From: Candidatus Woesearchaeota archaeon
GTDB lineage: Archaea; Nanobdellota; Nanobdellia; Woesearchaeales; GW2011-AR4
Assembly (NCBI GenBank): GCA_016181305.1
Contig: JACOZN010000005.1
Span: forward strand, 5,323 to 69,322
Direction: 5' to 3'
Length of the DNA stretch: 64,000 nucleotides
Part shown: in pieces, positions 20,342 to 60,196 of the stretch
Layout: every line of letters begins with the position of its first letter
Position numbering within the stretch: the stretch's first letter is position 1
Notes under the pieces: generated by a model
Seen by the model: the letters and a program-made list of their open reading frames with translations, nothing else
What the model was told of the DNA's origin: nothing
Databases searched by the model: none
Program-made: the position numbers and the translations under genes

Positions 20342-20399
20342 AAAATCACGAGAGCGACTTTTTGCTGCAAAAGTTATTAAAGTAATCCGCTTGTGATTT
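20342..20399 (+). repeat. 58-bp structured element, copy 1 (identical to 60139-60196)
   Basis: AAAATCACGAGAGCGACTTTTTGCTGCAAAAGTTATTAAAGTAATCCGCTTGTGATTT, with self-complementary ends. Confidence 0.95.
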
Positions 20400-20411
20400 T
20401 TTTATTAAAAA

Positions 20412-21215
20412 TCATTCTCCGCCAATCACCGCACTCTTTATATCTTCCCTGCACCGGCAGTCAATGTAATTTATTTTTGGAATGGCTTCAAGTAGCAATT
20501 TTTTCACATTCTCGGCATTCTTGCGCATTGTTTTCAAAATCATCCCGATATTGACGCCGTCTTCATGCGGATGCCAGACATCGAAGTCCGTTGACATCGC
20601 GACAATCGCATAGCAAATCCCAGCTTCCCTTGCCAAAACAACTTCTGGCACAGTGCTCATGTTGATGACATCAGCATTCCATTGCCTGTACATGTGGCTC
20701 TCTGCCTTTGTAGAAAATCTAGGTCCTTCAATTGTTACAACCGTGCCTTTCTTGTGATGCTCAAATTTCATCTCTTTTGCGGCTTCTGCAAGCAGTTCCC
20801 TTAATCTTTTGCAAAAAGGCTCTGCCATCGGAATGTGGCAGACTTTATCAGAATCATAAAAAGTTTGATGCCTTTTTGTTGTCCTGTCAATGAACTGGTC
20901 GCAGAAAACCAAATGCCCGGGCTTTATCTCCTCCCTCAAAGAGCCGCATGCAGTTGTTGCAATTATATGGGTGCAGCCCTGCTCTTTCAATGCCATTATG
21001 TTTGCCCTGTAATTGACATTGCTCGGCATTATTGTGTGCTTTTTGCCGTGTCTTGCCAGAATCACAACGTTAACATTCCCTATTTTGCCTATTACTAAAG
21101 CGCTTGAGGGGTTGCCGAATCCTGTTGTTGAATTTATTTCTCTTGCATCTTTCAGAATTCTCGGATCTTCCAATCCAGAGCCGCCAATTATGCCGATTTT
21201 TATTATCCCAACCAC
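20412..21215 (-). CDS. mtnP: S-methyl-5'-thioadenosine phosphorylase
   Basis: [41 protein letters not shown] and TDFD motifs; exact start uncertain. Confidence 0.96.
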
Positions 21216-21230
21216 CTATTAATTATTAAT

Positions 21231-21287
21231 AAATCACAAGCTGGTCTCCTCACTCACCATGCTTATAGAGGACGCTCTCGTTATTTT
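21231..21287 (-). repeat. Diverged copy of the structured element, directly upstream of mtnP
   Basis: Minus strand AAAATAACGAGAGCG-TCCTC-N16-GAGGA-GACCA-GCTTGTGATTT. The ends match copies 1 and 2, and the inner stem covaries. Confidence 0.8.
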
Positions 21288-21328
21288 TTATTTAAAATTT
21301 TAATTTATTACATCAATTACAACAAAAT

Positions 21329-21883
21329 CTATTTCTCAGCCTTAACCTTTAATGGGCTTTTTATTGCTTTATCGCTTATGATTGCAGAGTTTCCGCTCGG
21401 GTCCTCAATTATGATTTTCTGCTTTTCCTGCCCCCACGCTATCCTTGTCAGCTTCTTCAGGAGGTTTTTTGCCTTCTGCCTGTCTTCGTCATCCTCTGCA
21501 GCCTCTTTCAGCGATTCAATCTGGTATTTTACCCTGTTCAGTATGCCCTCTATGTTTGTCACGTAGCCCTGCGCCGCAGGCCCGGGAGTTATTGTCGTGA
21601 CATGGGGTATTTTGACAGTTGCCTCGGATGACTTGACAACCCTTACTTTCATGTCCTCTTCGCTGGAAATCTCAAACTCGAACTTCACAGGCTCTTTCTG
21701 CTCTGTTGCCTCAACATCAGCCTTATGGTACTTGCAGTTGTTGCAGGTCATTGAGAAAAGATAAACCTTGCCGAAGTAAGGCACTTCTGTTTCCCTTTCC
21801 GTCAGAATCAATGTTTTTTCGTGGCACAGCGGGCAGAGCTGCTGCTCGAAATCACCTTCAGATACGCTTTCTTCTTTAGGCAT
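21329..21883 (-). CDS. ZPR1 zinc finger protein
   Basis: CPLC...PYFG....C..C, TNIEG and DPSGNS motifs. Confidence 0.95.
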   Translation of the reverse strand: MPKEESVSEGDFEQQLCPLCHEKTLILTERETEVPYFGKVYLFSMTCNNCKYHKADVEATEQKEPVKFEFEISSEEDMKVRVVKSSEATVKIPHVTTITPGPAAQGYVTNIEGILNRVKYQIESLKEAAEDDEDRQKAKNLLKKLTRIAWGQEKQKIIIEDPSGNSAIISDKAIKSPLKVKAEK

Positions 21884-21921
21884 AAACTCTTTAGAAAAGG
21901 GTTTATTTTTATAGTTTTCGG

Positions 21922-21969
21922 AAAAATCAAGATTTTTCCAGAACTCAGAAAATCGTTGATTTTTGATAG
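21922..21969. repeat. Short intergenic palindromes (AAAATC-n-GATTTT family)
   Basis: AAAAATC-AA-GATTTTT and GAAAATC-GTT-GATTTT in tandem; related sequences near 22820 and 45393. Confidence 0.55.
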
Positions 21970-21976
21970 TTTTTGG

Positions 21977-22228
21977 TTATTTAGGAAAGTATAGGAAAGC
22001 AGCCTGTGACGGAATCAAGTCAAGCGAAGTTTTGTAAAACTTTTTAATTGCTTCCCTAACATAAAACTCGACATTTTGTGCATGTTGGTCCTTCGGAACA
22101 GGAATGCCATGAGAATACAATGCATAGTTTAATAGTTCTCTCCTAATGCTATATGCTAGCCTACTAACTAAGGAATTAACTTCTACATCAGCTTTTAACC
22201 TTTGTCCAACGTCCCTCAAAGCACCCAT
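21977..22228 (-). CDS. Hypothetical orphan protein
   Basis: 83-aa A/T-rich ORF between sepF and the ZPR1 gene, on the same strand. Confidence 0.6.
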   Translation of the reverse strand: MGALRDVGQRLKADVEVNSLVSRLAYSIRRELLNYALYSHGIPVPKDQHAQNVEFYVREAIKKFYKTSLDLIPSQAAFLYFPK

Positions 22229-22261
22229 CTTTAGTAGAAGATTAAAATATCAAAAGAAAAC

Positions 22262-22693
22262 CTATTCCTCGTATTCAGCAACTTCCACGCTTTCTGCCTT
22301 CTTGCCTTCATCCTTTGAGGGCTTGGGTCCCCTGTATATGTGGGCAAAGTTCGGCACAGCTGCAATCCAGTTCTCTCCAAATCCCGCTATATCGCCTTCA
22401 ATGGCATCGCAGGTTTTCTTGAGCTTGTTGACCGCCCTTTTCAGCTCAACAAGGTCCTTGTCTTTCAGCGGCTTGATATTGACTAGTGCAATTGTGCGGC
22501 CTTCCCTCAATGCATCAAGTATTGGCTTTATATGCTCAAACTCCTCGATTATAAACGGCCTTACCATGAGCTTTGACTTTGCGTCTGCTGCAGACTCGCT
22601 TCCAAGCTCAACATATCCCTGCTCGGCTTCCTCAAACATCTCAGAACCAGAGCCGGTTCCCAGTTTTTCCTTCAGCTTGCTTAAAAATCCCAT
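22262..22693 (-). CDS. sepF: Cell division protein SepF (archaeal type)
   Basis: ILDALREG.TIALVNI.PL...LKRAV.KLK......GDIAG; AGGTGA precedes ATG 22693. Confidence 0.9.
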   Translation of the reverse strand: MGFLSKLKEKLGTGSGSEMFEEAEQGYVELGSESAADAKSKLMVRPFIIEEFEHIKPILDALREGRTIALVNIKPLKDKDLVELKRAVNKLKKTCDAIEGDIAGFGENWIAAVPNFAHIYRGPKPSKDEGKKAESVEVAEYEE

Positions 22694-22868
22694 CAAAATC
22701 ACCTTCTTATTTAGTTTAATATTTTTAAATCAGTTTCCCGTAAGTTAGCAGATATATAAATCTTTCTATTCTGCTGAGTAGTAAATAAAATTTTTAATTG
22801 GGAAGTGCAGGACAGGAACCTATCAAAAAGCTGAGAGATTTTGAGAGGCTCAGAAATTTCACGGATTT

Positions 22869-22884
22869 CGAAACCTTTTTATAA
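22869..22884 (+). promoter_or_regulatory. BRE-TATA promoter of rpl21e
   Basis: CGAAACC-TTTTTATAA about 22 bp before ATG 22906. Confidence 0.65.
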
Positions 22885-22905
22885 TCACCTCAGTTCCGAA
22901 AGCCC

Positions 22906-23196
22906 ATGGTAAAAAGAATCGGCGGGCTTAGGAGAAAAACAAGGTACAAGTTCAGGAAAGAGAAGAGGAGCAGGGGAAAGATAAGCTTTACAAACTACCT
23001 TCAGTCATTCAGTGCAGGCGACAGGGTTTACCTTAATGTCGAGCCAGCCGTGCAGAAAGGAATGTACCATCCGAGATTTATGGGCAGAACTGGCGTAATA
23101 AAAGGCAAAAGAGGAAAGTGCTACGAGGTGGCAATGAATGACATTGGCAAGGGAAAAACGTTGATAGTTCATCCAGTTCACTTAAGGAGGGCTTAA
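22906..23196 (+). CDS. rpl21e: 50S ribosomal protein eL21
   Basis: G.RRKTR, KGMYHPRFMGRTG and HPVHL motifs. Confidence 0.97.
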   Translation: MVKRIGGLRRKTRYKFRKEKRSRGKISFTNYLQSFSAGDRVYLNVEPAVQKGMYHPRFMGRTGVIKGKRGKCYEVAMNDIGKGKTLIVHPVHLRRA

Positions 23197-23197
23197 A

Positions 23198-23545
23198 ATG
23201 GCAGAAACCCAGATAATTTCGGAAACGCCAATCAATACGTACCAGCTGAAGAAAGAGCTCGAAAAAATAAAGAAAAGGGATGGCGAGCTGAATTTCAGGG
23301 CAAACAGGACTGAAGAGCACATAAGCCAGATTGCAACGCTTAAAAATGCCGATGAGCTGTTTGACAAGCTGATGAAGCTCAATATACCGAGGCTTAAGGA
23401 GCAGCATATCCACAAGATAATTGACATAAACCCGACTACCCTAAACGAGCTCAAGTCGCTCCTGCAGGGCTATACAATAACAATCAACAATGACTCAATG
23501 AAGAAGATTGTGGACGCAGTCAACGAATTCCTGGAAAAGAAGTGA
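23198..23545 (+). CDS. rpo4: RNA polymerase subunit Rpo4 (RpoF)
   Basis: Conserved position after rpl21e; ELNFR and KIIDINP.T..ELK motifs. Confidence 0.85.
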   Translation: MAETQIISETPINTYQLKKELEKIKKRDGELNFRANRTEEHISQIATLKNADELFDKLMKLNIPRLKEQHIHKIIDINPTTLNELKSLLQGYTITINNDSMKKIVDAVNEFLEKK

Positions 23546-23581
23546 ATTATACATAATCTTTATAAATACAGATATTTCTGT

Positions 23582-24484
23582 TTGCTGAAAATGGGAGTGG
23601 CAACAAGCGAGCAGCATCTAAGCCTAAACAGGAGGCTGGCGCAGGAATCGAACAGGCTTGTGAAAAGGTTCAGCAACAAAAGCTATTCAAAAATTGAAAA
23701 AATCCACAAGCTGCTGCCGAGGCGCGACATATCAGTTGAAAGAAAAAAGGAGCTTCTGGCTAAAAAGCTCCATAATGCGGTTGTTGCTGCATTTTCAATC
23801 GACAAGGGTAAGTTCAATAAATCAAGCCTTGAAGCGCTGAAAAGAAGAATTTCAGCCATTAGGGAGATGACAGGCAGGCTGAGGGGCATAAATTATTATA
23901 TTGAAACTTCGCTTTTAGATGATTTGAATGTCCCGATTAAAAAAAAGGGAAGTGCCGGATTAAGGCTGCAGGGAAGCCTTGCAAGGGACGAGATTGAAGC
24001 GCTTGAGTACGCAGCCTATAAGCTGATAGAAGGCGCTGCAATGCTGGACAAAAGGCTGCTGGACAAATACTCGCGGAAAAAGAGCATAATCCTAAAAAAG
24101 CAGAAGATGAAAACCAAAGACTTGGAGTTTGTGCTGGGAAAGGAATCTGCTGCCCTGGAGCACCTCGAGGCAAAACTGCCTCCGCCGAGGGCAATTGGCA
24201 TGGCTTTGTTAAAAGAGCCGGCATTCACGCACTGGGCTGCAAGGGTGTTCGCCCTTTTGTCGTATTTTGAGCATATGCACCATAAGGAAAGGGGAATTTT
24301 AAGCGGGCTTAAAAAAAGAAAATCGGCAAAAAGGGCTATAAACAGAAAAATAGCCCATTTGATAAGGGAAAAATCAGAGCTGCTTGGGCTGATGCAGGAA
24401 AAGGCAGCCTCTATGGAAAAATTAAGATTGGATGGTGCAGCTAAAAGAGAGCTGCATAAATTTACTGCTGCAATAAGGCTTTGA
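23582..24484 (+). CDS. Hypothetical basic helical protein
   Basis: 300-aa K/R-rich ORF with a TATA-like TTTATAAATA upstream; the true start may be the in-frame ATG just downstream. Confidence 0.75.
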   Translation: MLKMGVATSEQHLSLNRRLAQESNRLVKRFSNKSYSKIEKIHKLLPRRDISVERKKELLAKKLHNAVVAAFSIDKGKFNKSSLEALKRRISAIREMTGRLRGINYYIETSLLDDLNVPIKKKGSAGLRLQGSLARDEIEALEYAAYKLIEGAAMLDKRLLDKYSRKKSIILKKQKMKTKDLEFVLGKESAALEHLEAKLPPPRAIGMALLKEPAFTHWAARVFALLSYFEHMHHKERGILSGLKKRKSAKRAINRKIAHLIREKSELLGLMQEKAASMEKLRLDGAAKRELHKFTAAIRL

Positions 24485-24493
24485 GGCTTGGAA

Positions 24494-25066
24494 ATGGAAC
24501 ATGAAAAAACCGAAAGGACGAAGGAGGAAACAGCCATAGTGCTTGATTTCCTCCCCAACGGCTATCATTACGACGAAAGGCCGATGTACATGAAGACTCC
24601 GATAGCCCAAGCCATAGGCAAGGAGTATTTTGTGCTCCTGGAGCTCGTGCCGAAGAAAGGCATTCATCTCCAGCCTTTTGAAGAAGTGTATATAGGGGAC
24701 GGCAAAAGGGACAAGATACACCATATAGTTGGCAAAATGAGCGTTGCAAAGCTCACAGCAACCGCAAAATCCGAGCTGGACTTTGTGATAAAAGACATAA
24801 TCAAAAAAAACGAGAAGAAGTTTATAGAGTTTTTTAACAGGGCGCAGCCGTTAAGCACAAGGATGCACCAGCTTGAGCTGCTGCCCGGGCTCGGGAAAAA
24901 GCACATGTGGCAGATAATAGAGGCAAGGCGCGATAAGCCCTTCGAGGATTTTTCAGACCTGAAAAACAGGGTGAAGCTGATGCCCGATCCTGAAAAAACC
25001 ATTATCAAGAGGATCCTGCAGGAGCTGGAAGGCTCTGAAAAGCACAGGATTTTTGTCGAAGCATGA
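24494..25066 (+). CDS. DUF655 RNA-binding protein
   Basis: IVLDFLP.G, AQAIG..YF.LLEL and RMHQLELLPGLGKK motifs. Confidence 0.95.
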   Translation: MEHEKTERTKEETAIVLDFLPNGYHYDERPMYMKTPIAQAIGKEYFVLLELVPKKGIHLQPFEEVYIGDGKRDKIHHIVGKMSVAKLTATAKSELDFVIKDIIKKNEKKFIEFFNRAQPLSTRMHQLELLPGLGKKHMWQIIEARRDKPFEDFSDLKNRVKLMPDPEKTIIKRILQELEGSEKHRIFVEA

Positions 25067-25073
25067 TTACGGC

Positions 25074-25694
25074 ATGCAAAACAGCATAAAATTCTGGAGG
25101 ATAAGCACTTCTGAAAAGGAGCTGAAAGACCTTCTGAAGGCATGGATTGCGGTTTCAATAGCGTTTGCAATAGCCATGAGGGGCTCGTCGCTTTTTTCGG
25201 CTGATTTTTATTTTAAATTTGTCGTCTCAGCCATGACTGTCGGCGCTGGATTCCTTCTTCACGAGCTTGGCCATAAGATTGCGGCTCAAAGATATGGCTG
25301 CTTTGCCGAATTCAGGTCATTCGACAACATGCTAATCCTTGCCGTTGCCATGTCATTTTTCCGGGTAATATTTGCAGCTCCTGGCGCCGTTATGATATCC
25401 GGAAGGGTAAACGCAAGAAAAAACGGCGTGATATCCGCTGCAGGGCCTGCCGTAAACCTGATATTGGCTTTGGCTTTTGCATCATTTTACTTTGCCCCCC
25501 TGCCGGGCCTGCTTAAATCCGTGGCATCTTACGGCTTTGTGATAAATACATGGCTTGCCCTGTTCAACATGATTCCTTTCTGGCTCTTTGACGGCTACAA
25601 GATATTTAAATGGAGCAGGTTAGCCTACTTTTCCATAGTCGGCATTGCCCTCGCCTTTATGGTCTCCCAGCAATTTATCCTCTTAAAGGCATGA
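25074..25694 (+). CDS. Site-2 protease family (M50) metalloprotease
   Basis: HELGH, AAGPAVN and FNMIP...FDG motifs. Confidence 0.93.
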   Translation: MQNSIKFWRISTSEKELKDLLKAWIAVSIAFAIAMRGSSLFSADFYFKFVVSAMTVGAGFLLHELGHKIAAQRYGCFAEFRSFDNMLILAVAMSFFRVIFAAPGAVMISGRVNARKNGVISAAGPAVNLILALAFASFYFAPLPGLLKSVASYGFVINTWLALFNMIPFWLFDGYKIFKWSRLAYFSIVGIALAFMVSQQFILLKA

Positions 25695-25837
25695 AAATGA
25701 AGCACAGCAGCCCAAAATGCCCAAACTGCGGAAGAAAACTGACGGAGAGCGAGCTTTACTGCTATTTTTGCGAGATGAGCCTGCCGGAGCCCGCTGAGAA
25801 AATCAGGAAAAAAGATGGAAATTCAGTGCCAAAATAA
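25691..25837 (+). CDS. Small zinc-ribbon protein
   Basis: MKMKHSSPKCPNCGRKLTESELYCYFCE...; ATGA overlap with the protease stop. Confidence 0.7.
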   Translation: MKMKHSSPKCPNCGRKLTESELYCYFCEMSLPEPAEKIRKKDGNSVPK

Positions 25838-26064
25838 AAAATAAATTTTGGGCAAATTCAAAAACAAAAAAATTTTAAGAACACGAAGAAAATTTTATCG
25901 TCGAGGAATCCAATCCAAAGAATTTTTGGCGTAAGAATATCGGGAAAAAATGCAAAAAAATCATAAAAATTGTCGTCGGAAAAAACAAAAAAAGAAAAGA
26001 TTTAAATACTACCTTTATAATTTATTTTAAATTGAAAAGAGGATTTTCAAACCGTGAATTTAAA

Positions 26065-26460
26065 ATGAGCGAATTTGGATTGCACGTTACAATCGATGCA
26101 TCAAGGTGCAACAAACAGAAGCTGATTTCAGTGCCCTTGGTGTATGATGTTCTAGACAACTTGCCTGCAAGGATAGGAATGACAAAGATGACTCTGCCCT
26201 ATGTGGTAAAATGGCTGGATAAGTTCTCGGAAGGAACTCCGGGCATTTCCGGGTTTGTCATGATTGCAGAAAGCCACATAAGCATCCACACATTCCCCGA
26301 CCAGGATTACGTGTTCATGGACATATTCTCGTGCAAGGAGTTTGACGCTGAGAAGGCAATAAGCTACCTTGTGAGGGCTTTTGAAGCCAAAAAATACGAA
26401 AAGCATGTCCTGAAGAGGGGCATGGACTTCCCGAGAAAGGTAATTTTAAGCCAGATGTAA
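26065..26460 (+). CDS. speD: Pyruvoyl-dependent AdoMetDC/SpeD-family decarboxylase proenzyme (SAM or arginine specificity unresolved)
   Basis: FGLH..ID, GISG..IAE|SHISIHTFP, DIFSC and RG motifs. Confidence 0.9.
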   Translation: MSEFGLHVTIDASRCNKQKLISVPLVYDVLDNLPARIGMTKMTLPYVVKWLDKFSEGTPGISGFVMIAESHISIHTFPDQDYVFMDIFSCKEFDAEKAISYLVRAFEAKKYEKHVLKRGMDFPRKVILSQM

Positions 26461-26541
26461 TCGAGTTTCCAGTTCTTAATCGGGATTTTTCCAATAACTT
26501 CAACAGAAGATTTTTATTCCGCTGGCTCTAACTACCCAATC

Positions 26542-27414
26542 ATGGCTAGAAATCCAATACACAATAAACTCAAAATCGGGCTTGTTCAGGCAAAAGTAAG
26601 CGATAAAGTTGATTCTAACCTGTCAAAGACGGCAAAGCTTGTCAGCCATGCGGCAAGAAAGGGGGCATCAATAGTCTGCCTTCAGGAGCTTTTTGCAACG
26701 CCTTATTTCTGCCAGCAGGAGAGAAAAGAATTGTTCAGGATGGCAGAGAAAATCCCGGGCAAAATCTCAAAATTCCTCTCAAAAACCGCAAAAACGAATA
26801 AAGTTGCATTGGTTGGCGGCTCTATTTTCGAAAAAGGCGAAGACAACAAATACTATAACACCTCCCTAATACTTGACGACAAGGGAAATTTAATTGGAAA
26901 ATACCGCAAGGTTCACATTCCTCACGATCCCGGCTATTACGAGCAGTATTATTTTAGTTCCGGCAATCTTGGCTATGTGCAGGCAGATTTCAACAATGTC
27001 AGGCTAGCGCCTTTGATATGTTATGACCAATGGTATCCTGAAGCAGCGAGAATAAATGCCCTAAGGGGGGCATCTGTCATTTTCTACCCAACTGCCATAG
27101 GCTGGACTGCTGACATGAAAGAAAACGAGCCATTTTCAGCTGAAAGGTGGCAAAACTCGATGTGCGGGCACGCCTCAATGAACGGCGTTTACGTAGCTGC
27201 TGCAAACAGGGTTGGCAAGGAGGGTGGCATAGATTTTTGGGGCGGTTCTTTTGTAACAGACCCATTTGGAGAGATTATTAAGAGAGCCAGCAGCTCTAAA
27301 GAAGAAGTTTTAATTGCCGAAATTGATTTAGGCAAAGTTGCAAGCTCTCAGGAAGGATGGGGTTTTCTTGAAAACAGAAAGCCCATGACTTACAGGGAAT
27401 TATACGAAATCTGA
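26542..27414 (+). CDS. aguB: N-carbamoylputrescine amidohydrolase (nitrilase family)
   Basis: CLQELF, YRKVHIP, ICYDQWYPE and YPTAIG motifs; adjacent to aguA. Confidence 0.9.
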   Translation: MARNPIHNKLKIGLVQAKVSDKVDSNLSKTAKLVSHAARKGASIVCLQELFATPYFCQQERKELFRMAEKIPGKISKFLSKTAKTNKVALVGGSIFEKGEDNKYYNTSLILDDKGNLIGKYRKVHIPHDPGYYEQYYFSSGNLGYVQADFNNVRLAPLICYDQWYPEAARINALRGASVIFYPTAIGWTADMKENEPFSAERWQNSMCGHASMNGVYVAAANRVGKEGGIDFWGGSFVTDPFGEIIKRASSSKEEVLIAEIDLGKVASSQEGWGFLENRKPMTYRELYEI

Positions 27415-27424
27415 TATTAATCTC

Positions 27425-28465
27425 ATGAATTCTCCAAAAGAACTCGGCTTTAGGATGCCTGCGGAATGGGAACCACAAGAAGCAATCTGGCTTGCATGGC
27501 CTCACAACAAGGACACATGGCCAGCTGAAATGCTTATGGAAGTTGAGGATTCCTATGCCAAATTTGTCAAAGTTTTGCATACCGGGCAGAAAGTTAAGAT
27601 TTTGGTTGGCAATCACGATTCTGAATTAAAAGTTAGGGAAAAGCTAAACCAAGCAGGGATAAACCTTTCCCAAATCATCCTTTACCAAATTGGCAATCAA
27701 GATGCTTGGATTAGGGACTATGGACCGACTTTTGTGGTAAACAACAAAGAAAACAAGCTTGCAATGGTTAAATGGGTATTCAATGCATGGGGCGACAAGT
27801 ACGATGATTTAAAGCCGGACAATGGAATTCCCTATGAAATGAATAAAATAATGAAATTGCCTCTTTTTGAGCCAGGAATTGTCTTGGAAGGCGGCTCTAT
27901 AGAAGCCAATGGCTCTGGGACATTGCTAACAACTGAGCAGTGCCTTTTAAGCAAAAATAGAAATTCAAATCTAAAGAAAGATGAAATTGAAAAGTATCTC
28001 AAAGACTACCTTAATGTTTCCAATATTTTATGGCTCAGGGAAGGGATTGCAGGAGACGACACTGATGGGCATATAGACGACATTGCAAGATTTGTAAACC
28101 AAAATACAGTGGTTTGCGCCTTTGAAGAAAACGAAAATGATGAAAATCACAGCATTTTACTTGAAAATTATAAGCTGTTGAGCCAAATGAGAGATGAAAG
28201 AGGCAATAAGCTGAATATCATAAAGCTCCCTATGCCTGGCTTTGTTGGAGATGATGAAAGAAGGTATCCGGCAAGCTACACAAACTTCTACATTGGCAAT
28301 GAAGCAGTTGTTGTGTCGATTTTTGGGCATGAGAATGACAGCAAAGCGCTTGAAATACTGCAAAAGCTTTTTCCAAATAGAAAAGTCGTTGGTGTAAACT
28401 GCAAAGCTATGGCGTATGGATTTGGAGCATTGCATTGTGTAAGCCAGCAGGAACCAAAAATTTAG
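27425..28465 (+). CDS. aguA: Agmatine deiminase
   Basis: RMPAEWEP, WIRDYGP, LEGGSI, DDTDGHID and G.LHCVSQQ motifs. Confidence 0.96.
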   Translation: MNSPKELGFRMPAEWEPQEAIWLAWPHNKDTWPAEMLMEVEDSYAKFVKVLHTGQKVKILVGNHDSELKVREKLNQAGINLSQIILYQIGNQDAWIRDYGPTFVVNNKENKLAMVKWVFNAWGDKYDDLKPDNGIPYEMNKIMKLPLFEPGIVLEGGSIEANGSGTLLTTEQCLLSKNRNSNLKKDEIEKYLKDYLNVSNILWLREGIAGDDTDGHIDDIARFVNQNTVVCAFEENENDENHSILLENYKLLSQMRDERGNKLNIIKLPMPGFVGDDERRYPASYTNFYIGNEAVVVSIFGHENDSKALEILQKLFPNRKVVGVNCKAMAYGFGALHCVSQQEPKI

Positions 28466-28480
28466 ATAGTTAAAATTTTC

Positions 28481-29668: not shown

Positions 29669-29806
29669 CTCGCATCAAAGAATGTCATTATTGGACGTAT
29701 TCCGGCTCTGTTTATAAAAACTTTTGTGAAAGAAATATTCCAAAAGGAATAATTTTAAATATAAGTTAGTAATCCTGAATAAGCGTGCGAAGGGGGCTTT
29801 GCTGGA

Positions 29807-50860: not shown

Positions 50861-51269
50861 GATCTTCTGGTTTGTGATGTTTTGATACATCTTCCAGCTT
50901 TCTGAAATGTCTGTCTCTTGTTACAAGGATTAAGTCGTTGTCTCTTGCTATTATAACGTGCAAAGCATCTCCAGCAGGAACATCTCTTTCCTTTGCAATT
51001 TTTTTGGCTTCTTCTCGCTGTTTTTCTGTAGCAATAATCTTTTTTATAATTTTTTCAAAAGGCTTAAACATTCCATTGATTTCTGCAACTGAATAAAGTG
51101 TCTCAAGTTCTTTTATAAGAAAATCGGTAAGCACAATAGCACTTTCTTTTGCTTTTATTTTGACAAGCAGCTTAAAGGCGTAATCGCCTAGTGGCTCATT
51201 GTTATAGCCTTTCCTATCTTCATAAAGATCAACCCAAATTGAAGTGTCTATTATGTATTCTTCTGCCAT
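50853..51269 (-). CDS. PIN domain (VapC-like) toxin
   Basis: YIIDTS.W, IKEL, GDALH and LVTRDRHF motifs; start at MAEEYII. Confidence 0.9.
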   Translation of the reverse strand: MAEEYIIDTSIWVDLYEDRKGYNNEPLGDYAFKLLVKIKAKESAIVLTDFLIKELETLYSVAEINGMFKPFEKIIKKIIATEKQREEAKKIAKERDVPAGDALHVIIARDNDLILVTRDRHFRKLEDVSKHHKPEDLI

Positions 51270-51390
51270 AGTAAGCAAGTGATTGTATGGGTATTTATAA
51301 TTTACTAGTTCTTTGACGTGAAAAACCATAGCAAAGTTTTTATATGTACATTTAGGTTTTCGTATATGGGGTTGGTAAATAAAGCTCAAA

Positions 51391-53733: not shown

Positions 53734-53891
53734 TATTAAAATTTATCACCCGATTACTACTACTTTTAACTTGAGTGTGCCCCTTAATTCTCATCCTTGA
53801 CGTATCGCTGTCGCTCATTTGATTGGACGAACGAGTGTCCCGAGTAATAACTTTTCGGGCGAAATTTTACCCCACTTCGTAGGGTAAAAGA

Positions 53892-54067
53892 GATTAACAA
53901 GAATTAGGCGGTTCGCAGGGTCGCTTACGCTAAAACGCCAAGCGTTTTCCCCTGCTCTCCCAAATTTTTGCCAGCTCTGAAAAATTCTCCATCTCTGAAG
54001 TTTGTGGGTTGCCTCAAACTTCGAGGGGAATTTTTCGAGGGCAAAAACTTCGCCTAATAAGTTAGTT
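53892..54067. repeat. Long structured palindrome at the right border of the cargo
   Basis: GATTAAC..ATTAGGCG ... CGCCTAAT..GTTAGTT enclose stems TTTTTGCC/GGCAAAAA, GAAAAATTCTCC/GGGGAATTTTTC and GAAGTTTG/CAAACTTC. Confidence 0.75.
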
Positions 54068-54112
54068 TCAATAATTTTTAGTGGCTAAACGACTGATAGG
54101 GGGACATTCCGC

Positions 54113-55174
54113 TCATTCCACAATATTCCCGGTGTGGCTTTCAACTGCAGGCAATTGCGGAGGCACGACTTTTCCATAGAACACACGCACCGTTTTATCA
54201 TTTATCTTTAAGACAGAGGGGTCATATACATTATCTTCCTGAAAAACAGGCATTGGCTCGCCGAAATCAAGCCCGTCAGATGATTCCACATAATAGATTC
54301 CTTTGGGAACTTTAGCAAATCCTTCATCTATAGAGGCTGCAAAAAGCACGTATTTATCGGCGATTCTGGCCAATGCTGGATCAACGAGATTTGGAACCCT
54401 GATTCCTGCTTCTTTTGCAAAATTAAGCCCATCAGAGGATACAGCTGATCCGATCCCGTGCTGCATTCCTGATGCCGTCACATAGTATATCCTTACTCGG
54501 CCGTCCGGAAGCATTATGGCATCTGGAACAGAAGCCCAGCCATTGTCGCCGTTAGTCTCTGAATCTATCCTAAGCCCCTCTTTTTCGAAAGTCAAGCCAT
54601 CTGAAGATACTGCAGAATAAATTTTGTGTATAGACTGTCCGGGCCCGGGGTTCTGGCTATTCGCGCCCTTGTAGTACATCCTAATTTTTCCGCCCGGAAG
54701 ATTTACGATAGTCGGATCGCAGACGATGAATTCAAATCCTGCTCCTGGGGAGATTCTTATGCCCTGCTCTTTTGCAAAAGTCAGTCCGTCATTGGAAATC
54801 GCAGACAATATCCCTTTGATGTTGCAGTAGTACAGGCGAACTTTTCCATCCTTCAAGCCATGCACAAAAGGAACAGACCCGTCTGCAATTCTTGAGCCGC
54901 CGTCTTTCTCCCAGGAAAAAGACAATGCTTCTGCAGCCGGTTCTGTCGGCATATTGTTAATTTCAGGGATTAAATCCTGGGGTGTTTCAGAAACGGATTC
55001 CGGTTCAGCCTCGGAGTTTGACGGGAAACCTTGCTGCAAACCTCCGGCAACCCCGGCTTCCCCATCCCGCTCAGCTTCCTCCTGCGCTTCTTTGAAATCG
55101 GCAGACTCCTGAGCAGCGCAGCCAGAAATAATAATAGCAAAAACCAGCATAAACAACACAGCCTCTTTTTTCAT
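54113..55174 (-). CDS. Lipoprotein with beta-propeller glycoside hydrolase-like (Asp-box) domain
   Basis: Lipobox-like IISGC, acidic linker, and repeated DP....R.YY...SA.S.DGL.F blades. Confidence 0.8.
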   Translation of the reverse strand: MKKEAVLFMLVFAIIISGCAAQESADFKEAQEEAERDGEAGVAGGLQQGFPSNSEAEPESVSETPQDLIPEINNMPTEPAAEALSFSWEKDGGSRIADGSVPFVHGLKDGKVRLYYCNIKGILSAISNDGLTFAKEQGIRISPGAGFEFIVCDPTIVNLPGGKIRMYYKGANSQNPGPGQSIHKIYSAVSSDGLTFEKEGLRIDSETNGDNGWASVPDAIMLPDGRVRIYYVTASGMQHGIGSAVSSDGLNFAKEAGIRVPNLVDPALARIADKYVLFAASIDEGFAKVPKGIYYVESSDGLDFGEPMPVFQEDNVYDPSVLKINDKTVRVFYGKVVPPQLPAVESHTGNIVE

Positions 55175-55248
55175 TATTCTGGCACCCCATTATGTTATAT
55201 TTAAATCTTTTCAAAATCTTTATAAACCCCAATACTTATACCGCATCT

Positions 55249-55707
55249 ATGGCAAAACAGATTTTTGTGAATTTGCCGGTAAAGGACCTAGACAAAACAA
55301 TAGAATTCTTTACTAAACTGGGCTTCGATTTCAACCCCAAATTCACAGATAAAAACGCAACATGCATGATTATCGGCGAAAACATATTCGCAATGCTGTT
55401 AGTTGAAAAATTTTTCAGGACATTTATCCCCAACAAGGGAATTTCTGACGCTAAAAAAAGCACAGAAGTGCTTGTTGCACTGGCAGTTGAAAGCAGGGCA
55501 AAAGTTGACGGGATGGTAAATAAGGCAATAGAAGCCGGCGGCAAAGAATACAGGACAGCGCAAGACCATGGATGGATGTACGGGCGGGCTTTCGAGGATT
55601 TGGACGGGCATGTCTGGGAAGTGTTTTACATGGATGAAAGCAAAATGCCGGAAGAGATGAAAAGTAAAGACAATAAAAATGAACAAGAAGAATTCAATAA
55701 CGCTTAA
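55249..55707 (+). CDS. VOC/glyoxalase family protein
   Basis: IFVNLPVKDL...FF..LGF and MYGRAFEDLDGHVWE motifs. Confidence 0.93.
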   Translation: MAKQIFVNLPVKDLDKTIEFFTKLGFDFNPKFTDKNATCMIIGENIFAMLLVEKFFRTFIPNKGISDAKKSTEVLVALAVESRAKVDGMVNKAIEAGGKEYRTAQDHGWMYGRAFEDLDGHVWEVFYMDESKMPEEMKSKDNKNEQEEFNNA

Positions 55708-56092
55708 ATCCCAACACATCACTATTTCAATTAATCGCTCTGCGAATGACGTTTACGAATTCACTTCAAATCCCGAGAATCTTCCAAAATGGGCAGCAGG
55801 TCTTAGCGGTTCTATAAAAAACATTAAAGGCGACTGGATTGCTGAATCTCCGATGGGAACCATCAAAATTAAATTCGCTGAAAAAAATAAATTCGGCATT
55901 CTGGACCATGATGTCATTTTGCCGTCAGGCGAGAAAATCTATAACCCGATGCGCGTATTTCCCAACAACGATGGCAGCGAATTAGTCTTCACACTGTATC
56001 AAAGGTCAGATATGTCAGACAAACTGTTTGAAGATGATGCTAAGCTGGTCAAAAGGGATATTGAAAAGTTAAAGAAATTGCTTGATAAATAA
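55679..56092 (+). CDS. SRPBCC/polyketide cyclase-like protein
   Basis: VYEF.SNPENLPKWAAGL, GILDHDV and NPMRV motifs. Confidence 0.88.
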   Translation: MNKKNSITLKSQHITISINRSANDVYEFTSNPENLPKWAAGLSGSIKNIKGDWIAESPMGTIKIKFAEKNKFGILDHDVILPSGEKIYNPMRVFPNNDGSELVFTLYQRSDMSDKLFEDDAKLVKRDIEKLKKLLDK

Positions 56093-56182
56093 GGAGAAAC
56101 GATCATGAAAATTAAACTAACCCTTAGTACTAACATTTATATATCCAATCCGCAATTTACATTTATTCGGGGGTAGAACATT

Positions 56183-56541
56183 ATGGCTTATTTCAAAACA
56201 AAATATGTCTCATGCTTGGGTTCATGAAACTGCTCGGGTTGTGGGGCATGCCTGGCGGTGCTGCTGCTTTCGGGACTTTGGTTTGGTATGCCGGCGTTTT
56301 TGAGCTGATGATTGGATTATCCATGCTGACTGGAGTATTAGTTCGGCTTGCATCCGCCTTTGGCATAGTCATGATGATTGTTGCTTACTACTTGGGGCAT
56401 GTTAAGGTAGGCGGCTGGAATCCGCTTGTTAACTTTGGAATGCCTGCCATCATATTCCTGCTTGCATTCTTAGTCACATTAGCTTACGGCGCAGGAAAAG
56501 CCAGTCTGGAAAAAATAGCCTTTAAAAAAGAATTTTTCTGA
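56183..56541 (+). pseudogene. DoxX-family membrane protein with 5' frameshift/deletion
   Basis: ATG 56183 (MAYFKTKY..) is out of frame with 56212-56541 (G..KL.G, AGVFEL..GL...TG..R.A, YGAGK.SLE). The start of the first helix is missing. Confidence 0.7.
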
Positions 56542-56586
56542 GTTTTTTTGTTTTAATTTTTATTTAAATGCAGCTTTAATCTGCAT

Positions 56587-57261
56587 CTATGAACTTAGGC
56601 TGTTTACAAATGCTGAAACTTCACTTTCATTTTGAAGAACAACGACTTCCAAGTTTGGAAACTCCTCATTTTTAGGAATTTCCTGGGTTCTATGGATAAG
56701 ATGTATAACCCTTTCATCGACTATTTCTCTTTTCTGTGTGTTCCTGCTGTGTCTTTTCAAAGAAACGTCCAAGCCAAGGTTCAGATAAACCAGCATTTTT
56801 TTAGTTTCATCCAAACCTAAATTAAATCCCATTATTTCCGCCATTTCTGATAGGCTCTCAAATAACATTCTTCTCCTTACCCTATCGTGCAGGAGTGATT
56901 CTATAACAGGAATTTCACCACCTATATGCGATAATTCCGATACTATATAAGAATTTACAGCTTGTTGAAAAAGCTGATTCCAGAATGTCTTGCCATCCTT
57001 ACCGACTGCTGTAATTACGGCGTACTTTAGTTTATTTAAATCCCTTTTGCCAGCCGACGGAGTGCTAATTCCAAATTGCTGCAGTATAGCCGGGTAGAAC
57101 TTCTGAAGAGACTCAAAAAATTTCTCTGGCTCTTCTTCAAGTTTGTCATGTATTGAATCTATTCCAAGAATCTTATATTTAGGGTTTCTTTGTTTTATTG
57201 CATCGCATAAGTAACTCTTTCCTGAATAGGGTATACCTCCAACAAGCATTAAATTTTCCAT
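56587..57261 (-). CDS. P-loop kinase-like orphan
   Basis: N-terminal GIPYSGKS Walker A and an R..RN lid. Confidence 0.7.
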   Translation of the reverse strand: MENLMLVGGIPYSGKSYLCDAIKQRNPKYKILGIDSIHDKLEEEPEKFFESLQKFYPAILQQFGISTPSAGKRDLNKLKYAVITAVGKDGKTFWNQLFQQAVNSYIVSELSHIGGEIPVIESLLHDRVRRRMLFESLSEMAEIMGFNLGLDETKKMLVYLNLGLDVSLKRHSRNTQKREIVDERVIHLIHRTQEIPKNEEFPNLEVVVLQNESEVSAFVNSLSS

Positions 57262-57304
57262 TATAATTAAGTAATGGGCGACTTTTTATATGCTTATTGT
57301 TTTA

Positions 57305-59893
57305 TTACTCCTTTATCTTTATCCTAGCCATCACCTGCTCGTGCATCCTTTTCACAAACTCTGCCCTGTCCTCAATCTTCATTAAATCCGTGAAGCCCTG
57401 CAAAAACAGGTTGAATGCAAACGGCGACGGAAGGTTTGTATTGATTTCCTTCACAAGGATCTTTTTCTGCTCAATCCCCTCAATCACCTTGGAGGCGCTT
57501 TCTATGTCCATCAGGTCCTCCAAAACCTCCCTTCTTGCCTCCTTAAGAATGCAGAAGTCAGTGCTTATTCTTCTCACGGCATTAATCAGGATCATTGACG
57601 AAACCTGCTGCCTTCCAACCCTTTTCTGGCGCCCCATGTAGCTCCTCAAAATCATCATAGCCCGAGTTGCGCAGTGCCTGAACCTTCTTTTCAAAACTTC
57701 TGTATGCTCTATAGCCATTTCCATTATTTTCCCCATTTCCTTTGATTTTACAAGGTTGAATGCCTGCATTATGTTGATGCTTTTCTCAGATGCAACATAA
57801 AACCCGTTGTCATTGATGCCAATCTCGACATCCCTGTGCTGAGTTCTTCCAATCGCAAATGCAACTGCTCTTGACAGGCAGTCATTAACCCTTCTTCCGT
57901 ACAAAGTGTGGAATATTGCATACTTCCTTTTTGACTTCGGGTCAGCGTAGTGCTCGACTATGATTCTTGAATGGGACGGAATCTCGGCGTAGCTGAACTG
58001 CTCGTAGAAATACCTGTAAATTGACTCTGAGGAGTTTTTGTCAACGTAAAGGTACTTGTCTATGAAATCAAGAACTTCCTTTCCTGATTTGTTTGCGCAA
58101 AATAATTCATTCATCAGCTTCCTGAACCTTCCGATGTCCAATGCCAAGTCAAAGCTCAGCGGCAGCATCTCGGAAAACCATGAGGGTATTGTCGGAGGCC
58201 TGTAAACAGAGGCATTGACATAAGCAACCATGCCTTTTGCGTACAGAAACTCATAGCGCTCGCCTCCAAGCACAAAGACATCTCCTCGTTTCAGCCTTTC
58301 AAGAAACGCCTCGTCAATGTACCCAATGGGCTGCTCGCCAACCTTGACTGTAATGAAGGATTCTTCAGGAATCGTGCCAATGTTTGTCATGTAGATAACC
58401 CTTGACATCTTGCCCTTTTTTCCAATTTCCTGTGTTTCCTCATCGTACCAAATCTTTGCGTAGATATGCCTGTCCTCAAGCGAAATGTATTTTCCTGCAA
58501 GGTATTCAATTACCTCAATGAAGTCCTTCCATTCCAATTCATTGTAGCAGTAGCTTTGCTTTATTAAATTAAACAAGTCCTTTGCTTTCCATCTTTGCTC
58601 AAGGCTCATTCCATGGACTTGCTGCGCCAGGACATCTAGGCAGTTTCTTGGGATATGGATTTTGTCAATCTTTTTTTCAATGGCTGACTTTAGAAGCACG
58701 GCACACTCAACCAAGTCATCCCTGTCCAAAACTATGATTCTTGCTTTAACAGTGTCGTGCAGCCTGTGCCCCGAGCGCCCTGCGCGCTGCAGAAACCGTG
58801 CAACTGACTTTGGAGAGCCGAGGCATATAACCAAGTCTATGTATCCAATGTCAATGCCCAGTTCCAATGAGGTGCTTGAAACAATGACTTTCAACTCGCC
58901 TTTTCTTAATCTGTTTTCAATATTGTGCCTCAAAGTTTTTGACAATGAGCCATGATGCGCCCCGATGTTTTCAGTGTATTTTTTCGGGAACTTTTCCTTT
59001 AAGTGATGCACCACCCTTTCTGTCGCGCTTCTCGTGTTTGTGAAAATCAAAGTTGTCTTGTGGCTTTGTATCAGGTCATCGATTAAAGTGTACATCGAGC
59101 TGTGCATGAAGATATGCTCCATGCCAACCAAGTCAGGCACAGGGCTTAAAACCTTCAAGTCCATGTTTTTTATAAACTGCACATCCACAATCTTGCAGTT
59201 TCTCAGCTTGTCATTTTCGTAGCCAACAAGAAATTTTGCAATATCCTCCAATGGCGCAATAGTTGCGCTTAAGCCTACTCTTGTCATTGCAGGCGAAATC
59301 CTCTGCAGCCTTTCCATCGACAATGACAAATGAACTCCTCTCTTGTTTTCCGCCAGCGCATGCACCTCGTCAACAATGAGCCATTCGACATTCTGCAATA
59401 AGCCGCTGAATTTTATGGACGAGAGCATTATCGCAAGGCTTTCCGGGGTTGTGATTAGGATGTGGGGTGGATGCTTGAGCATTTTTGCCTTTTCAGAAGC
59501 TGATGTGTCGCCTGTCCTTACTGCAACTCTCACTCCAAGCTTTTTTCCCGCAATCTTTTCCATTTCCTTGAGCGGCTCAACCAGATTGAACTGAATGTCA
59601 TTGCTCAATGCCTTCAACGGGGAAACATAAACACAATAAACACGATTTTCCAAAATCCCTTTTTCACTTGAATCAATCAACTCATTTAAAATCGACAGAA
59701 ATGCAGTCAGTGTTTTTGTCGCTCCGGTTGGCGCACTCACAAGAATATTGCTTCTTGAGTGGATTTCCATCACTCCAAACAACTGCGGCAAAGAGAATTC
59801 CCTGAACATTGTGAAGAACCACTTGTCTATGATAGGATTCAATATATGCTTGATCTGCTCGGGCTTGTACGGTTTTTCCAGATGCTCAATCAT
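57305..59893 (-). CDS. lhr: Lhr-family ATP-dependent helicase
   Basis: SPLKAL, RTGDT, TTPESL, DEVH, SAT, HHGSL, LELGIDIG and QRAGRSGH motifs. Confidence 0.96.
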   Translation of the reverse strand: MIEHLEKPYKPEQIKHILNPIIDKWFFTMFREFSLPQLFGVMEIHSRSNILVSAPTGATKTLTAFLSILNELIDSSEKGILENRVYCVYVSPLKALSNDIQFNLVEPLKEMEKIAGKKLGVRVAVRTGDTSASEKAKMLKHPPHILITTPESLAIMLSSIKFSGLLQNVEWLIVDEVHALAENKRGVHLSLSMERLQRISPAMTRVGLSATIAPLEDIAKFLVGYENDKLRNCKIVDVQFIKNMDLKVLSPVPDLVGMEHIFMHSSMYTLIDDLIQSHKTTLIFTNTRSATERVVHHLKEKFPKKYTENIGAHHGSLSKTLRHNIENRLRKGELKVIVSSTSLELGIDIGYIDLVICLGSPKSVARFLQRAGRSGHRLHDTVKARIIVLDRDDLVECAVLLKSAIEKKIDKIHIPRNCLDVLAQQVHGMSLEQRWKAKDLFNLIKQSYCYNELEWKDFIEVIEYLAGKYISLEDRHIYAKIWYDEETQEIGKKGKMSRVIYMTNIGTIPEESFITVKVGEQPIGYIDEAFLERLKRGDVFVLGGERYEFLYAKGMVAYVNASVYRPPTIPSWFSEMLPLSFDLALDIGRFRKLMNELFCANKSGKEVLDFIDKYLYVDKNSSESIYRYFYEQFSYAEIPSHSRIIVEHYADPKSKRKYAIFHTLYGRRVNDCLSRAVAFAIGRTQHRDVEIGINDNGFYVASEKSINIMQAFNLVKSKEMGKIMEMAIEHTEVLKRRFRHCATRAMMILRSYMGRQKRVGRQQVSSMILINAVRRISTDFCILKEARREVLEDLMDIESASKVIEGIEQKKILVKEINTNLPSPFAFNLFLQGFTDLMKIEDRAEFVKRMHEQVMARIKIKE

Positions 59894-60074
59894 TTTTAAA
59901 CAACTTAAATATATTTAAATAATCTTTTTATACTGCCTTTCAATATTATTTTTCTATATGGAAAATAAATATGTATACTTTAATTGTTATTATTTGATAA
60001 TGTGTGGAAATTTATAAAGATTTTGACAATTCGAAACAACAACCTTTTTAAAGAAGCTGATTATCCCGATATCC

Positions 60075-60113
60075 GTGCTAACGCAAGTTAGCCAATCTAG
60101 CACCGCAAGGTGT
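60075..60113 (+). ncRNA. Candidate structured leader or small RNA: two GCAA-tetraloop hairpins
   Basis: GCTAAC-GCAA-GTTAGC and GCACC-GCAA-GGTGT begin about 22 bp after a TATA-like TTTTTAAA (60045-60052). Confidence 0.5.
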
Positions 60114-60138
60114 AAAGAAAAACTGTTAAAATTTAAAT

Positions 60139-60196
60139 AAAATCACGAGAGCGACTTTTTGCTGCAAAAGTTATTAAAGTAATCCGCTTGTGATTT
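60139..60196 (+). repeat. 58-bp structured element, copy 2
   Basis: Identical to 20342-20399. Confidence 0.95.

Follow-up and report, generated by a model that had tools for sequence, protein, structure and literature searches.

Repetitive extragenic palindromes (REPs) and bacterial interspersed mosaic elements (BIMEs) are short imperfect palindromes found in tens to hundreds of intergenic copies, which are cotranscribed and affect the stability of mRNA 3' ends. The Correia repeat of Neisseria is transcribed and processed as an RNA hairpin. The family described here was found in a stretch of 64,000 nucleotides from a Candidatus Woesearchaeota archaeon (assembly GCA_016181305.1, contig JACOZN010000005.1, positions 5,323 to 69,322 of the forward strand; the whole of this 64-kb stretch is hereafter called the window), in which three copies of a short structured element lie in spacers between genes. 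It is akin to the transcribed hairpin repeats of the REP, Correia and miniature inverted-repeat transposable element (MITE) types, from which it is set apart by clean covariation, strand bias and modular composites. We give about an even chance to the reading that the element is a cis-acting RNA hairpin residing in the untranslated regions (UTRs) of mRNAs and spread by repeat-type copying.

With the REP/BIME system and its REP-associated tyrosine transposase (RAYT, IS200-like, Y1), the element shares intergenic copy numbers and a strand-specific hairpin with mismatches or a bulge, but its host is an archaeon, no Y1 was found in its copy-rich genomes, its 4-nt bulge is conserved, its boxes are unrelated to REP, and it is often the first module of a composite of 150-200 nt. 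Like MITEs and the Correia repeat, it is a nonautonomous intergenic repeat, present or absent among relatives, that would form a hairpin if transcribed and may affect the expression of neighbours. Unlike them, it displays no clear copy-specific terminal inverted repeats, no evident target duplication and no parent transposase in the searches made (Y1 and TnpB for the latter), and compensatory changes in its inner stem would be needless for a DDE transposase. A third comparison is offered by L7Ae, which binds kink-turns (k-turns, as defined in PMC5061560) in archaeal mRNA leaders and represses translation, according to PMC5539422; hairpins in mRNA untranslated regions are common to that system and to the proposed one.

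The core of the element spans about 50 nt. A lower stem P1 (GAGCG/CGCUU, the first pair being G.U) is followed by a 5-bp inner stem P2 closing a semi-conserved loop of 16-19 nt, and the 3' strand carries a 4-nt bulge, RAYC, between the two stems. Copies 1 and 3 are the same over 58 of 58 bp (AAAATCAC...GTGATTT) and stand about 40 kb apart, their identity ending abruptly on both sides in unrelated flanks. Copy 2 keeps both conserved boxes and differs from them in inner stem and loop. A two-box pattern with a gap of 25-40 nt matches exactly three sites in the window, against zero expected from 100 dinucleotide-preserving shuffles. The first-pass annotation of the window, made from its letters, had reported these copies of 57-58 bp at 20342, 21231 and 60139, two of them identical over 58 bp, and they are present as described. 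Their parts are as follows, with scores from the covariance model R1 introduced below.

20342-20399, plus strand: copy 1, 58 bp, same sequence as copy 3, 81.8 bits; P1 GAGCG at 20352-20356, P2 ACTTT at 20357-20361, loop at 20362-20378, P2' AAAGT at 20379-20383, bulge AATC at 20384-20387, P1 CGCTT at 20388-20392, outer GTGAT at 20393-20397.
21231-21288, minus strand: copy 2, diverged, P2 TCCTC/GAGGA, 70.5 bits; read on the minus strand, ACGAGAGCG at 21281-21273, P2 at 21272-21268, loop at 21267-21252, P2' at 21251-21247, bulge GACC at 21246-21243, AGCTT at 21242-21238, GTGAT at 21237-21233.
60139-60196, plus strand: copy 3, same sequence as copy 1, 77.5 bits; GAGAGCG at 60147-60153, P2 at 60154-60158, loop at 60159-60175, P2' at 60176-60180, bulge AATC at 60181-60184, CGCTT at 60185-60189, GTGAT at 60190-60194.

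All alignment cells of P2 (100%) are paired in the 29 copies found in this genome, three of its five pairs are changed on both sides, and all 500 column shuffles as well as all slid registers score lower. In other genomes, 89 copies were gathered by a pattern open to 8x8 = 64 combinations of arms, only 8 of them Watson-Crick complementary; here the stem has 99.6% of its cells paired. A compensatory change of P1, from GAGCG/CGCUU to GAACG/CGUUU, is seen in four copies of relatives, and RNAalifold independently predicts both P1 and P2. Over P1b and P2 in 123 copies, 133 cells hold G.U or U.G versus none with A.C or C.A; most of these 133 are the invariant first pair and about a dozen fall at variable positions. 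For the window copies, the plus sense folds better than its complement (-14.5, z = -3.1, versus -11.5 kcal/mol; -13.2 versus -9.4 kcal/mol). These results bear out what the first-pass annotation had read from three copies, namely that ACTTT/AAAGT and TCCTC/GAGGA differ by three of five pairs that all still pair, and that a G-U pair in the outer stem favours one strand: the G.U/G.T pairs of the lower stem occur solely on the strand it had chosen.

In a position profile of 127 copies, the 5' side is a stretch of some 20-40 nt, A-rich and G-poor, whose last bases are AA-W-M-A-C and which leads into GAGAGCG. The 5' arm of P2 occurs as ACTTT, TCCTT, TCCTC, ACCTT, ACTTC, GCTTT or ACCTC, and the bulge as AAAC, AATC, AACC, GAAC or GACC. 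Behind the bulge come NGCTT and a tail rich in U (TTGATG.., GTGATT..). Where the tail is T-rich, the helix is extensible to CGAGAGCG/CGCUUUUG, and a GTGAT tail would permit an alternative AUCAC/GUGAU pairing with a GA bulge. When copies are aligned with one another, identity of 70-80% carries on for 30-70 nt into the A-rich tract upstream, which may mean a unit longer than 58 bp or mere low complexity; the 5' flank is not common to the identical copies 1 and 3 beyond 8 nt. The loop follows the consensus U-N-G-A-W-G-Y-A-A ... G-U-G-A-W-N, and no covariation was detected within it in a parsing by pattern that left out 49 of 136 unique copies. Conservation of lower stem, bulge and P2 around a loop that is only semi-conserved points to recognition by a protein.

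The three-copy scale first assigned to the element proved too small. Exact boxes located 8 sites in this genome (hereafter G000, an assembly of 1.07 Mb in 22 contigs, 78% complete) against none for a reversed-pattern control, and relaxed searches brought the clear members, judged by eye, to 29. These were aligned and the covariance model R1 was built from the alignment, a search that the first-pass annotation had proposed. R1 recovers all 29 in G000 at 58.9-81.8 bits, plus one weak hit. It hits 19 of 24 same-genus species (G numbers such as G001 denote genomes of relatives), with 0 to 102 copies per genome, G001 holding 102, and gives no hit in 16 genomes from 16 other families of the order. 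Scanning one genome per prokaryote species with the exact pattern yielded at least 110 stretches; among the matches listed (80 loci), nearly all belong to metagenome-assembled genomes (MAGs) labelled Woesearchaeota, Nanoarchaeota or archaeon. Among these listed matches are also a few small contigs with other labels: one holds a full-scoring copy and is probably mis-binned, and two others, with a weak R1 hit of 28.9 bits and no hit, are probably chance pattern matches. No copy was found in 2.9 million viral contigs. A comparison with Rfam 15, also proposed at the outset, gave no match in the 64-kb window at gathering scores and none at E<=1 in 20 loci (14,577 bases with 21 of the 29 copies, including the A+B and A+C composites described below). 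Searches of the literature on DPANN MITEs, where the MITE survey PMC11602168 and its preprint came up, and on Woesearchaeota intergenic noncoding RNA turned up no description of it, as judged by title or abstract. The family is thus genus-restricted among the genomes searched, dispersed, structured and well supported, and has apparently not been described before.

Copy 1 was also traced in Logan contigs. In four of four DNA runs of one study, which may include the source sample of the genome itself, each unique flank of copy 1 is joined to a half-element with 0 mismatches, so that the identical copy has the support of independent contigs. No single Logan contig spans copy 1, the contigs breaking in mid-repeat. 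As far as contigs show, the view that copy 1 is no assembly artefact is supported. Over the element (window 20340-20423), contigs from four groundwater DNA runs are 5-10 times as deep as over the flanks, and loose ends show other flanks. This excess depth and the mid-repeat breaks indicate a repeat that is abundant in the community and fragments assemblies; on the practical side, it causes assembly breaks in these MAGs.

All 29 copies of G000 are intergenic. Where the two neighbours are co-directional, the element lies in sense in 15 of 17 cases in G000 (binomial p 0.002) and in 65 of 72 cases in relatives (107 non-redundant copies; binomial p 7e-13), that is 80/89 (90%), with p values that overstate the bias because orthologous copies in kin are not independent. 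Genes were called here crudely as longest open reading frames (ORFs), and 17 of the 107 copies overlap a called ORF that is probably spurious. Among the relatives' copies, 13 stand in divergent spacers and 9 in convergent ones. The neighbourhood of the window copies is made up of the following features.

19249-20274, plus strand: Zn-alcohol-dehydrogenase (Zn-ADH) ORF.
20275-20341, plus strand: A-rich, G-poor 5' flank of copy 1; an equivalent tract precedes every copy in the 127-copy profile.
20412-21215, minus strand: PNP_UDP_1 phosphorylase, MTAP-like.
21329-21883, minus strand: ZPR1-like protein.
57305-59893, minus strand: Lhr-type helicase.
60044-60052, plus strand: sequence CTTTTTAAA, resembling a transcription factor B recognition element (BRE) and TATA box; it precedes the leader, so that copy 3 falls within the rps19e 5' UTR.
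60074-60118, plus strand: two-hairpin leader GCTAAC..GTTAGCC..CACC-GCAA-GGTG, context outside the repeat.
60228-60791, plus strand: ribosomal protein S19e (rps19e), start codon at 60228; its homologues are labelled Candidatus Woesearchaeota.

Copy 1 lies 68 nt past the end of the Zn-ADH ORF in the convergent spacer between this gene and the MTAP-like one. Copy 2 stands about 17 nt ahead of the MTAP-like ORF, between the ZPR1-like and MTAP-like genes and in sense to both, and copy 3 stands 32 nt ahead of rps19e, between a conserved leader and the start codon. The gene context given by the first-pass annotation is borne out at all three sites, including its observation that copies 1 and 2 bracket the MTAP-like gene (its mtnP) as an inverted pair. 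In G000, ten copies are placed 18-38 nt ahead of start codons, and one copy sits between atpA and atpB, 19 nt ahead of the atpB start. Read by eye from their N-termini, the downstream genes are functionally unrelated: peroxiredoxin-like, thymidine-phosphorylase-like, MTAP-like, S19e, TyrRS-like, ThrRS-like, AtpB, PurF-like, thymidylate-kinase-like and others.

This scatter of genes belongs to no one pathway, and it bears on the suggestion that the element is a ligand-sensing riboswitch, a self-cleaving ribozyme or a binding site for a protein on double-stranded DNA. A new class is conceivable, given the conserved structure, the invariant internal bulge and the lack of a match to any known class, even at the permissive Rfam threshold. 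Against this, conservation falls mainly on base-paired residues and is lowest in the loop, the 50 nt offer no candidate junction or pseudoknot, and a double-stranded DNA site would have no need for compensatory changes that tolerate G.T and are strand-asymmetric. We regard any of these as scarcely credible, and the riboswitch class was rejected. The "unnamed RNA motif" of the first-pass annotation accordingly stands in its structure, through covariation, and in its sense-strand bias, and finds no support in its ligand-sensor and ribozyme options.

The rps19e site, like the atpA-atpB spacer, indicates that the element lies inside transcripts. In 24 of 24 genus genomes examined, a BRE/TATA-like sequence, (A)ACAACC-TTTTTAAA, lies upstream of rps19e and a leader follows about 22 nt later (60039-60118 in G000). 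The leader consensus is GCTAAN-loop-NTTAGCC, TCT, then (R)CACC-GCAA-GGTG(Y); the closing pair of its second hairpin covaries (A-U 13, G-C 4, G-U 3), and the sixth pair of the first occurs, by eye, as C-G, T-A, A-T and G-C. It has no Rfam match in the window search, and it is a candidate ribosomal-protein S19e leader. In one species devoid of insertions it ends 18 nt before the ATG, too close for a second promoter to fit in between, and it would accordingly be 5' UTR. Copy 3 lies between this promoter-plus-leader and the rps19e start; there, the element must be read through. The rps19e gene was located in 27 genus genomes, and eight of them (G000 and seven others) have an element in the same relative place, 34-66 nt past the leader and ahead of the start codon. 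Across these eight species the stems are conserved while loops and flanks diverge; the ortholog of copy 3 in G015/G018 differs by one loop base.

Two side observations were made at this site. At L058 (G014), L061 (G011) and L073 (G004), where L numbers denote loci of relatives, other hairpins take the position of the rps19e element behind an ATCAC or ATTCAATCC motif; such hairpins, as CGTCGCT-TCCCGC..GCGGGA-ACCC-AGC and GTGACTTGC-ATA-GCAAGTCAC, go undetected by R1, so that the family is probably broader than counted. Moreover, an insertion of about 150 bp lies between element and rps19e in G015/G018 (L055, about 1335-1485; L037) and is absent at window position 60212 in G000. Terminal inverted repeats (GTCAAAAACCACCAGTC.../...GACTGATGGTATATTTTCGAC) bound it, with what appears to be a TA duplication, and it resembles a classical MITE with a clean empty site.

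Proliferation of the element is visible at orthologous sites. The ZPR1-MTAP spacer is empty in G001, G013 and G018, where it measures 10-15 nt with a GGTG-type ribosome-binding motif, and filled in G000, G015 and G017, where it measures 115-190 nt with an element, the G015/G017 copies being orthologs of copy 2. The convergent MTAP/ADH spacer is empty, at 10-20 nt, in G001 and G013 and reaches 137 nt with copy 1 in G000. Empty sites, which the first-pass annotation had suggested looking for, thus exist at both spacers flanking the MTAP-like gene. Copies 1 and 3 have in common a loop T (GTTATT) where the G015/G018 ortholog of copy 3 has the consensus GTGATT, which implies copying, or gene conversion of the core, within this lineage. 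The family therefore behaves as a mobile repeat by both presence or absence at orthologous sites and variable copy number. The alternative idea of the first-pass annotation, a tiny mobile element with selected structure, is upheld by this gain and loss of sites and by the range of copy numbers, and its structured-RNA and mobile-element halves are probably both true.

Mobility also raises the question of whether anything else is needed. On a purely selfish account, the element is a MITE- or REP-like palindrome whose hairpin and bulge are recognised on (possibly single-stranded) DNA by a transposase or recombinase, its sense bias being a by-product of counter-selection. The 0-102 range within one genus, the sites filled in some species and empty in others, and identical copies 40 kb apart in unrelated flanks are all as this account would have them. 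Its outer arms AAAATCAC/GTGATTTT are complementary, with pairing in copies 1 and 3; in many composites, ATTCAATCC at the start and GGATTGAA(T) at the end look like terminal inverted repeats; and the genus hosts other MITEs, such as the element of about 150 bp just mentioned. The account nevertheless meets several obstacles. No target-site duplication is seen abutting the 58-bp unit at the three window copies, where AT-rich flanks make short repeats uninformative. No transposase is linked to the family: 17 of 31 genus genomes have Y1_Tnp (PF01797), but it was not found in the copy-rich G000, G001, G005, G015, G016, G017 and G022 (74-92% complete), and a TnpB domain was found in 2 of 31, in searches for these two domains. 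Viral contigs contain no copies. Copy-specific pairing of the flanks as an extended AU stem is not significant, own 5'/3' flanks pairing no better than cross-copy flanks in 123 copies (p=0.09, 0.31). The rps19e stems are conserved across eight species despite diverging loops and flanks, and 90% sense orientation in co-directional spacers would exceed the insertion bias expected from a link to replication. A solely selfish origin, the main rival of the RNA reading, is thus a possibility of limited weight, although it and the RNA signal are not mutually exclusive.

The reading as a cis-acting RNA hairpin would combine both sides. The family would multiply by DNA-level copying, through transposition in trans or through recombination or gene conversion, and settle in intergenic DNA, from which the element would be carried in sense within untranslated parts of mRNAs: a 5' UTR (rps19e), intercistronic spacers (ZPR1-MTAP, atpA-atpB) and a 3' region (after ADH). 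The hairpin would be maintained by selection at the RNA level, and its likeliest role would be that of a cis signal recognised by a protein, which marks or protects transcript ends or tunes translation (a "punctuation/stability" hairpin). Placement before start codons, inside operons and after genes fits a processing or stability mark or a translational operator. Transcription of the element, the binding of a protein and its effect are what we infer from sequence features.

Several points weigh against this reading. The locus turned up in no RNA run. A sense bias could arise free of any function if antisense copies, which would put a hairpin and a long U-tract into operon transcripts, are purged by selection, and hairpins that are strand-specific and contain bulges and G.T pairs are also targets of single-strand DNA transposases. 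The copies are found on the 5' as well as the 3' side of genes, including the divergent and convergent spacers, and no single UTR role fits them all. A copy number between 0 and 102 among sister species is unusual for an essential signal, with the proviso that R1 may miss diverged variants such as the G014 hairpin. The K-loop reading of the loop, finally, is weak.

The K-loop concerns the identity of the protein. In order and spacing, the loop UNGA...GUGA(U/A) would read as a D'-like strand (NUGA), then a short loop, then a C'-like strand (RUGAU), and some half of the copies might fold into an L7Ae-type K-loop. Among 125 loops parsed (11 of 136 copies dropped), both G.A pairs (GA..GA) are available in 39 (31%) and the key one (NA..GA) in 69 (55%), the bases before the 3' GA being mostly R-G-U, and no loop covariation was seen. 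Unlike a K-loop, the element is best conserved in its lower stem and bulge and not in its loop. L7Ae as the partner is accordingly a rather doubtful detail.

Promoters separate the element from ordinary genes. Upstream of 261 protein genes, an A-rich BRE stands at -35..-33 and a T/A-rich box at -30..-24 from the ATG, the pattern of leaderless mRNAs. Ahead of 127 copies there is no T-rich peak at -30..-24, just a smooth A-rich tract, and an own promoter with positioned BRE/TATA is unsupported. An outward promoter at the 3' edge would fit rps19e (TTTAAAAT about 30 nt before the ATG), not the copies 18-26 nt from start codons, and was rejected. This evidence speaks against the copies being independent small RNA (sRNA) genes that make stable RNAs of 50-200 nt from their own promoters, for instance as L7Ae-bound ribonucleoproteins (RNPs) acting in trans. 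The U-rich tract behind the hairpin (CGCUUUUGAUGUUU) does resemble an archaeal terminator, part of the copies have the K-loop-like loop, and the A+C composites of G000 end in T-runs, one of them (C11, where C numbers denote contigs of G000) lying antisense between two genes. However, a guide would need a longer and more constrained variable part, and the conserved parts are engaged in pairing among themselves; the ends show none of box C (RUGAUGA), box D (CUGA) or ACA, and autonomous genes would not be expected to show a strong sense bias to their neighbours. We consider such genes improbable.

The same U-rich 3' side, with an A-tract before and a T-tract behind as in a bidirectional terminator, invites the view that the element is a portable transcription terminator or attenuator, in which hairpin and U-tract stop RNA polymerase after the upstream gene. 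Indeed, a same-strand gene ends at a median of 68 nt upstream of the element in 76 of 99 copies of relatives. Yet at the rps19e leader in eight species and between atpA and atpB it would silence essential genes, and the 13 copies in divergent spacers have no upstream gene to terminate. Archaeal termination requires just oligo-U, so that the conserved sequence, the bulge and the covarying stem would go unexplained. A terminator is thus very improbable.

The first-pass annotation had missed that, in sister species, the hairpin is a module of longer composites: it (module A) is usually followed there on the same strand by a module B or C. Module B, of about 90-130 nt, comprises GGCGAGGC, a covarying stem-loop, GCCGAGCAC (a tandem G.A context), a GAAG-loop hairpin with a covarying stem and a GGATTGAA end. 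Module C, of about 100 nt, comprises GGCACTTTAAAGC..ATAGTGC, then GCGGGGCACCCAT..ATGGGTCGC and a T-run or GATTG end. Stem covariation in B and C is visible as GCC/GGC, GTGC/GCAC and, around the GAAG loop, GTTGCC/GGCAAC. By a strict pattern, 38 of 107 copies are followed by module B, and inspection by eye reveals further cases. In G000 module A is mostly solo, with about six A+C-like composites and few B modules. Examples of both modules are the following.

L113:611-765, L111:5001-5150 and L167:1088-1244: module B in relatives.
C15:138467, minus strand, and C18:62926, plus strand: module B in G000.
C2:5400-5545, C11:11900-12028, C18:15330-15478 and C21:60180-60322, all minus strand: module C in G000.
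L137, L112, L110, L116 and L145: module C in relatives.

In the cases measured by eye, a gene starts 27-58 nt past the composite. The ATTCAATCC and GGATTGAA ends may form a helix that closes the RNA or, alternatively, be inverted repeats at the termini. In some copies (C11 of G000, L145), the 3' end of module C, CTCTCGT(GATTTTT), matches the hairpin's 5' edge with full complementarity and, on paper, offers an alternative long-range closing helix. Two species have the same 5' motif followed by a different hairpin, which indicates a modular system. Neither module matches Rfam at E<=1. A fixed order and strand of modules, together with covariation of the RNA type, suggests that module A acts in the same RNA as its partners.

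From the composites a more specific scenario can be drawn, which we hold to be unlikely. Module A with B or C would form a mobile "punctuation" cassette of RNA that has come to occupy 5' UTRs and intercistronic spacers by the dozen, where it would cut or mark polycistronic transcripts as a signal recognised by an L7Ae-type RNP or an endonuclease. If so, downstream genes would receive mRNAs with short leaders and upstream mRNAs a protective 3' hairpin, in a leaderless-dominated, Shine-Dalgarno-poor DPANN archaeon, and a selfish repeat would have created a genus-wide post-transcriptional regulon.

The wider interest of the family does not depend on this scenario. In the tiny genomes of DPANN archaea there is little space for junk, and the noncoding RNAs and expression signals of these archaea are barely known; the present family has hundreds of copies and clean compensatory changes, and reaches into essential operons and ribosomal-protein leaders. 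If the element is a processing, stability or L7Ae signal, it would show that a mobile repeat can rewire post-transcriptional control genome-wide, and the signal would give a handle on the expression of internal cistrons in archaea with leaderless mRNAs. If it is merely selfish DNA, it is still a new archaeal repeat class.

Several known classes of RNA were compared and set aside. As in a bulge-helix-bulge (BHB) splicing motif, bulges on opposite strands can be drawn around AGCG/CGCU (5' GAG, 3' RAYC), and the genome is rich in intron-bearing tRNAs. However, the canonical 3-nt/4-bp/3-nt geometry is replaced by 3(+1)/4/4 or 2/5/4, with a 4-nt bulge and either an extra unpaired U facing the 5' bulge or a 5-bp helix, and the motif was rejected. 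A box C/D sRNA was dismissed as well: the 5' box reads ACGAGAG, the 3' UGA is found in part of the copies, and the "guide" positions are conserved and mutually paired. An H/ACA sRNA fails for lack of a 5'-strand internal loop and of an ACA past the stem. The ACGAGAG heptamer also occurs in the universal sarcin-ricin loop, but mimicry of that loop was discarded, the GAGCG part being base-paired with covariation.

Module B also recalls CRISPR repeats. Its hairpin and GGATTGAAA end resemble the 3' part of many of them, and among the papers listed for GGATTGAAAC most deal with CRISPR. Of 31 genus genomes, one yielded Cas6_C and none Cas5d, and the link was dropped.

A hidden tRNA, tRNA half or intron was dropped in turn, as no detected tRNA overlaps the element and tRNA introns show no similarity to it. 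No small- or large-subunit rRNA genes were found in the 78%-complete G000 assembly. Its tRNAs are few, ARAGORN giving 4 without and 14 with intron search and RF00005 giving 15 matches, 12 of which pass the cut-off; many of them have long or noncanonically placed introns of 11-71 nt.

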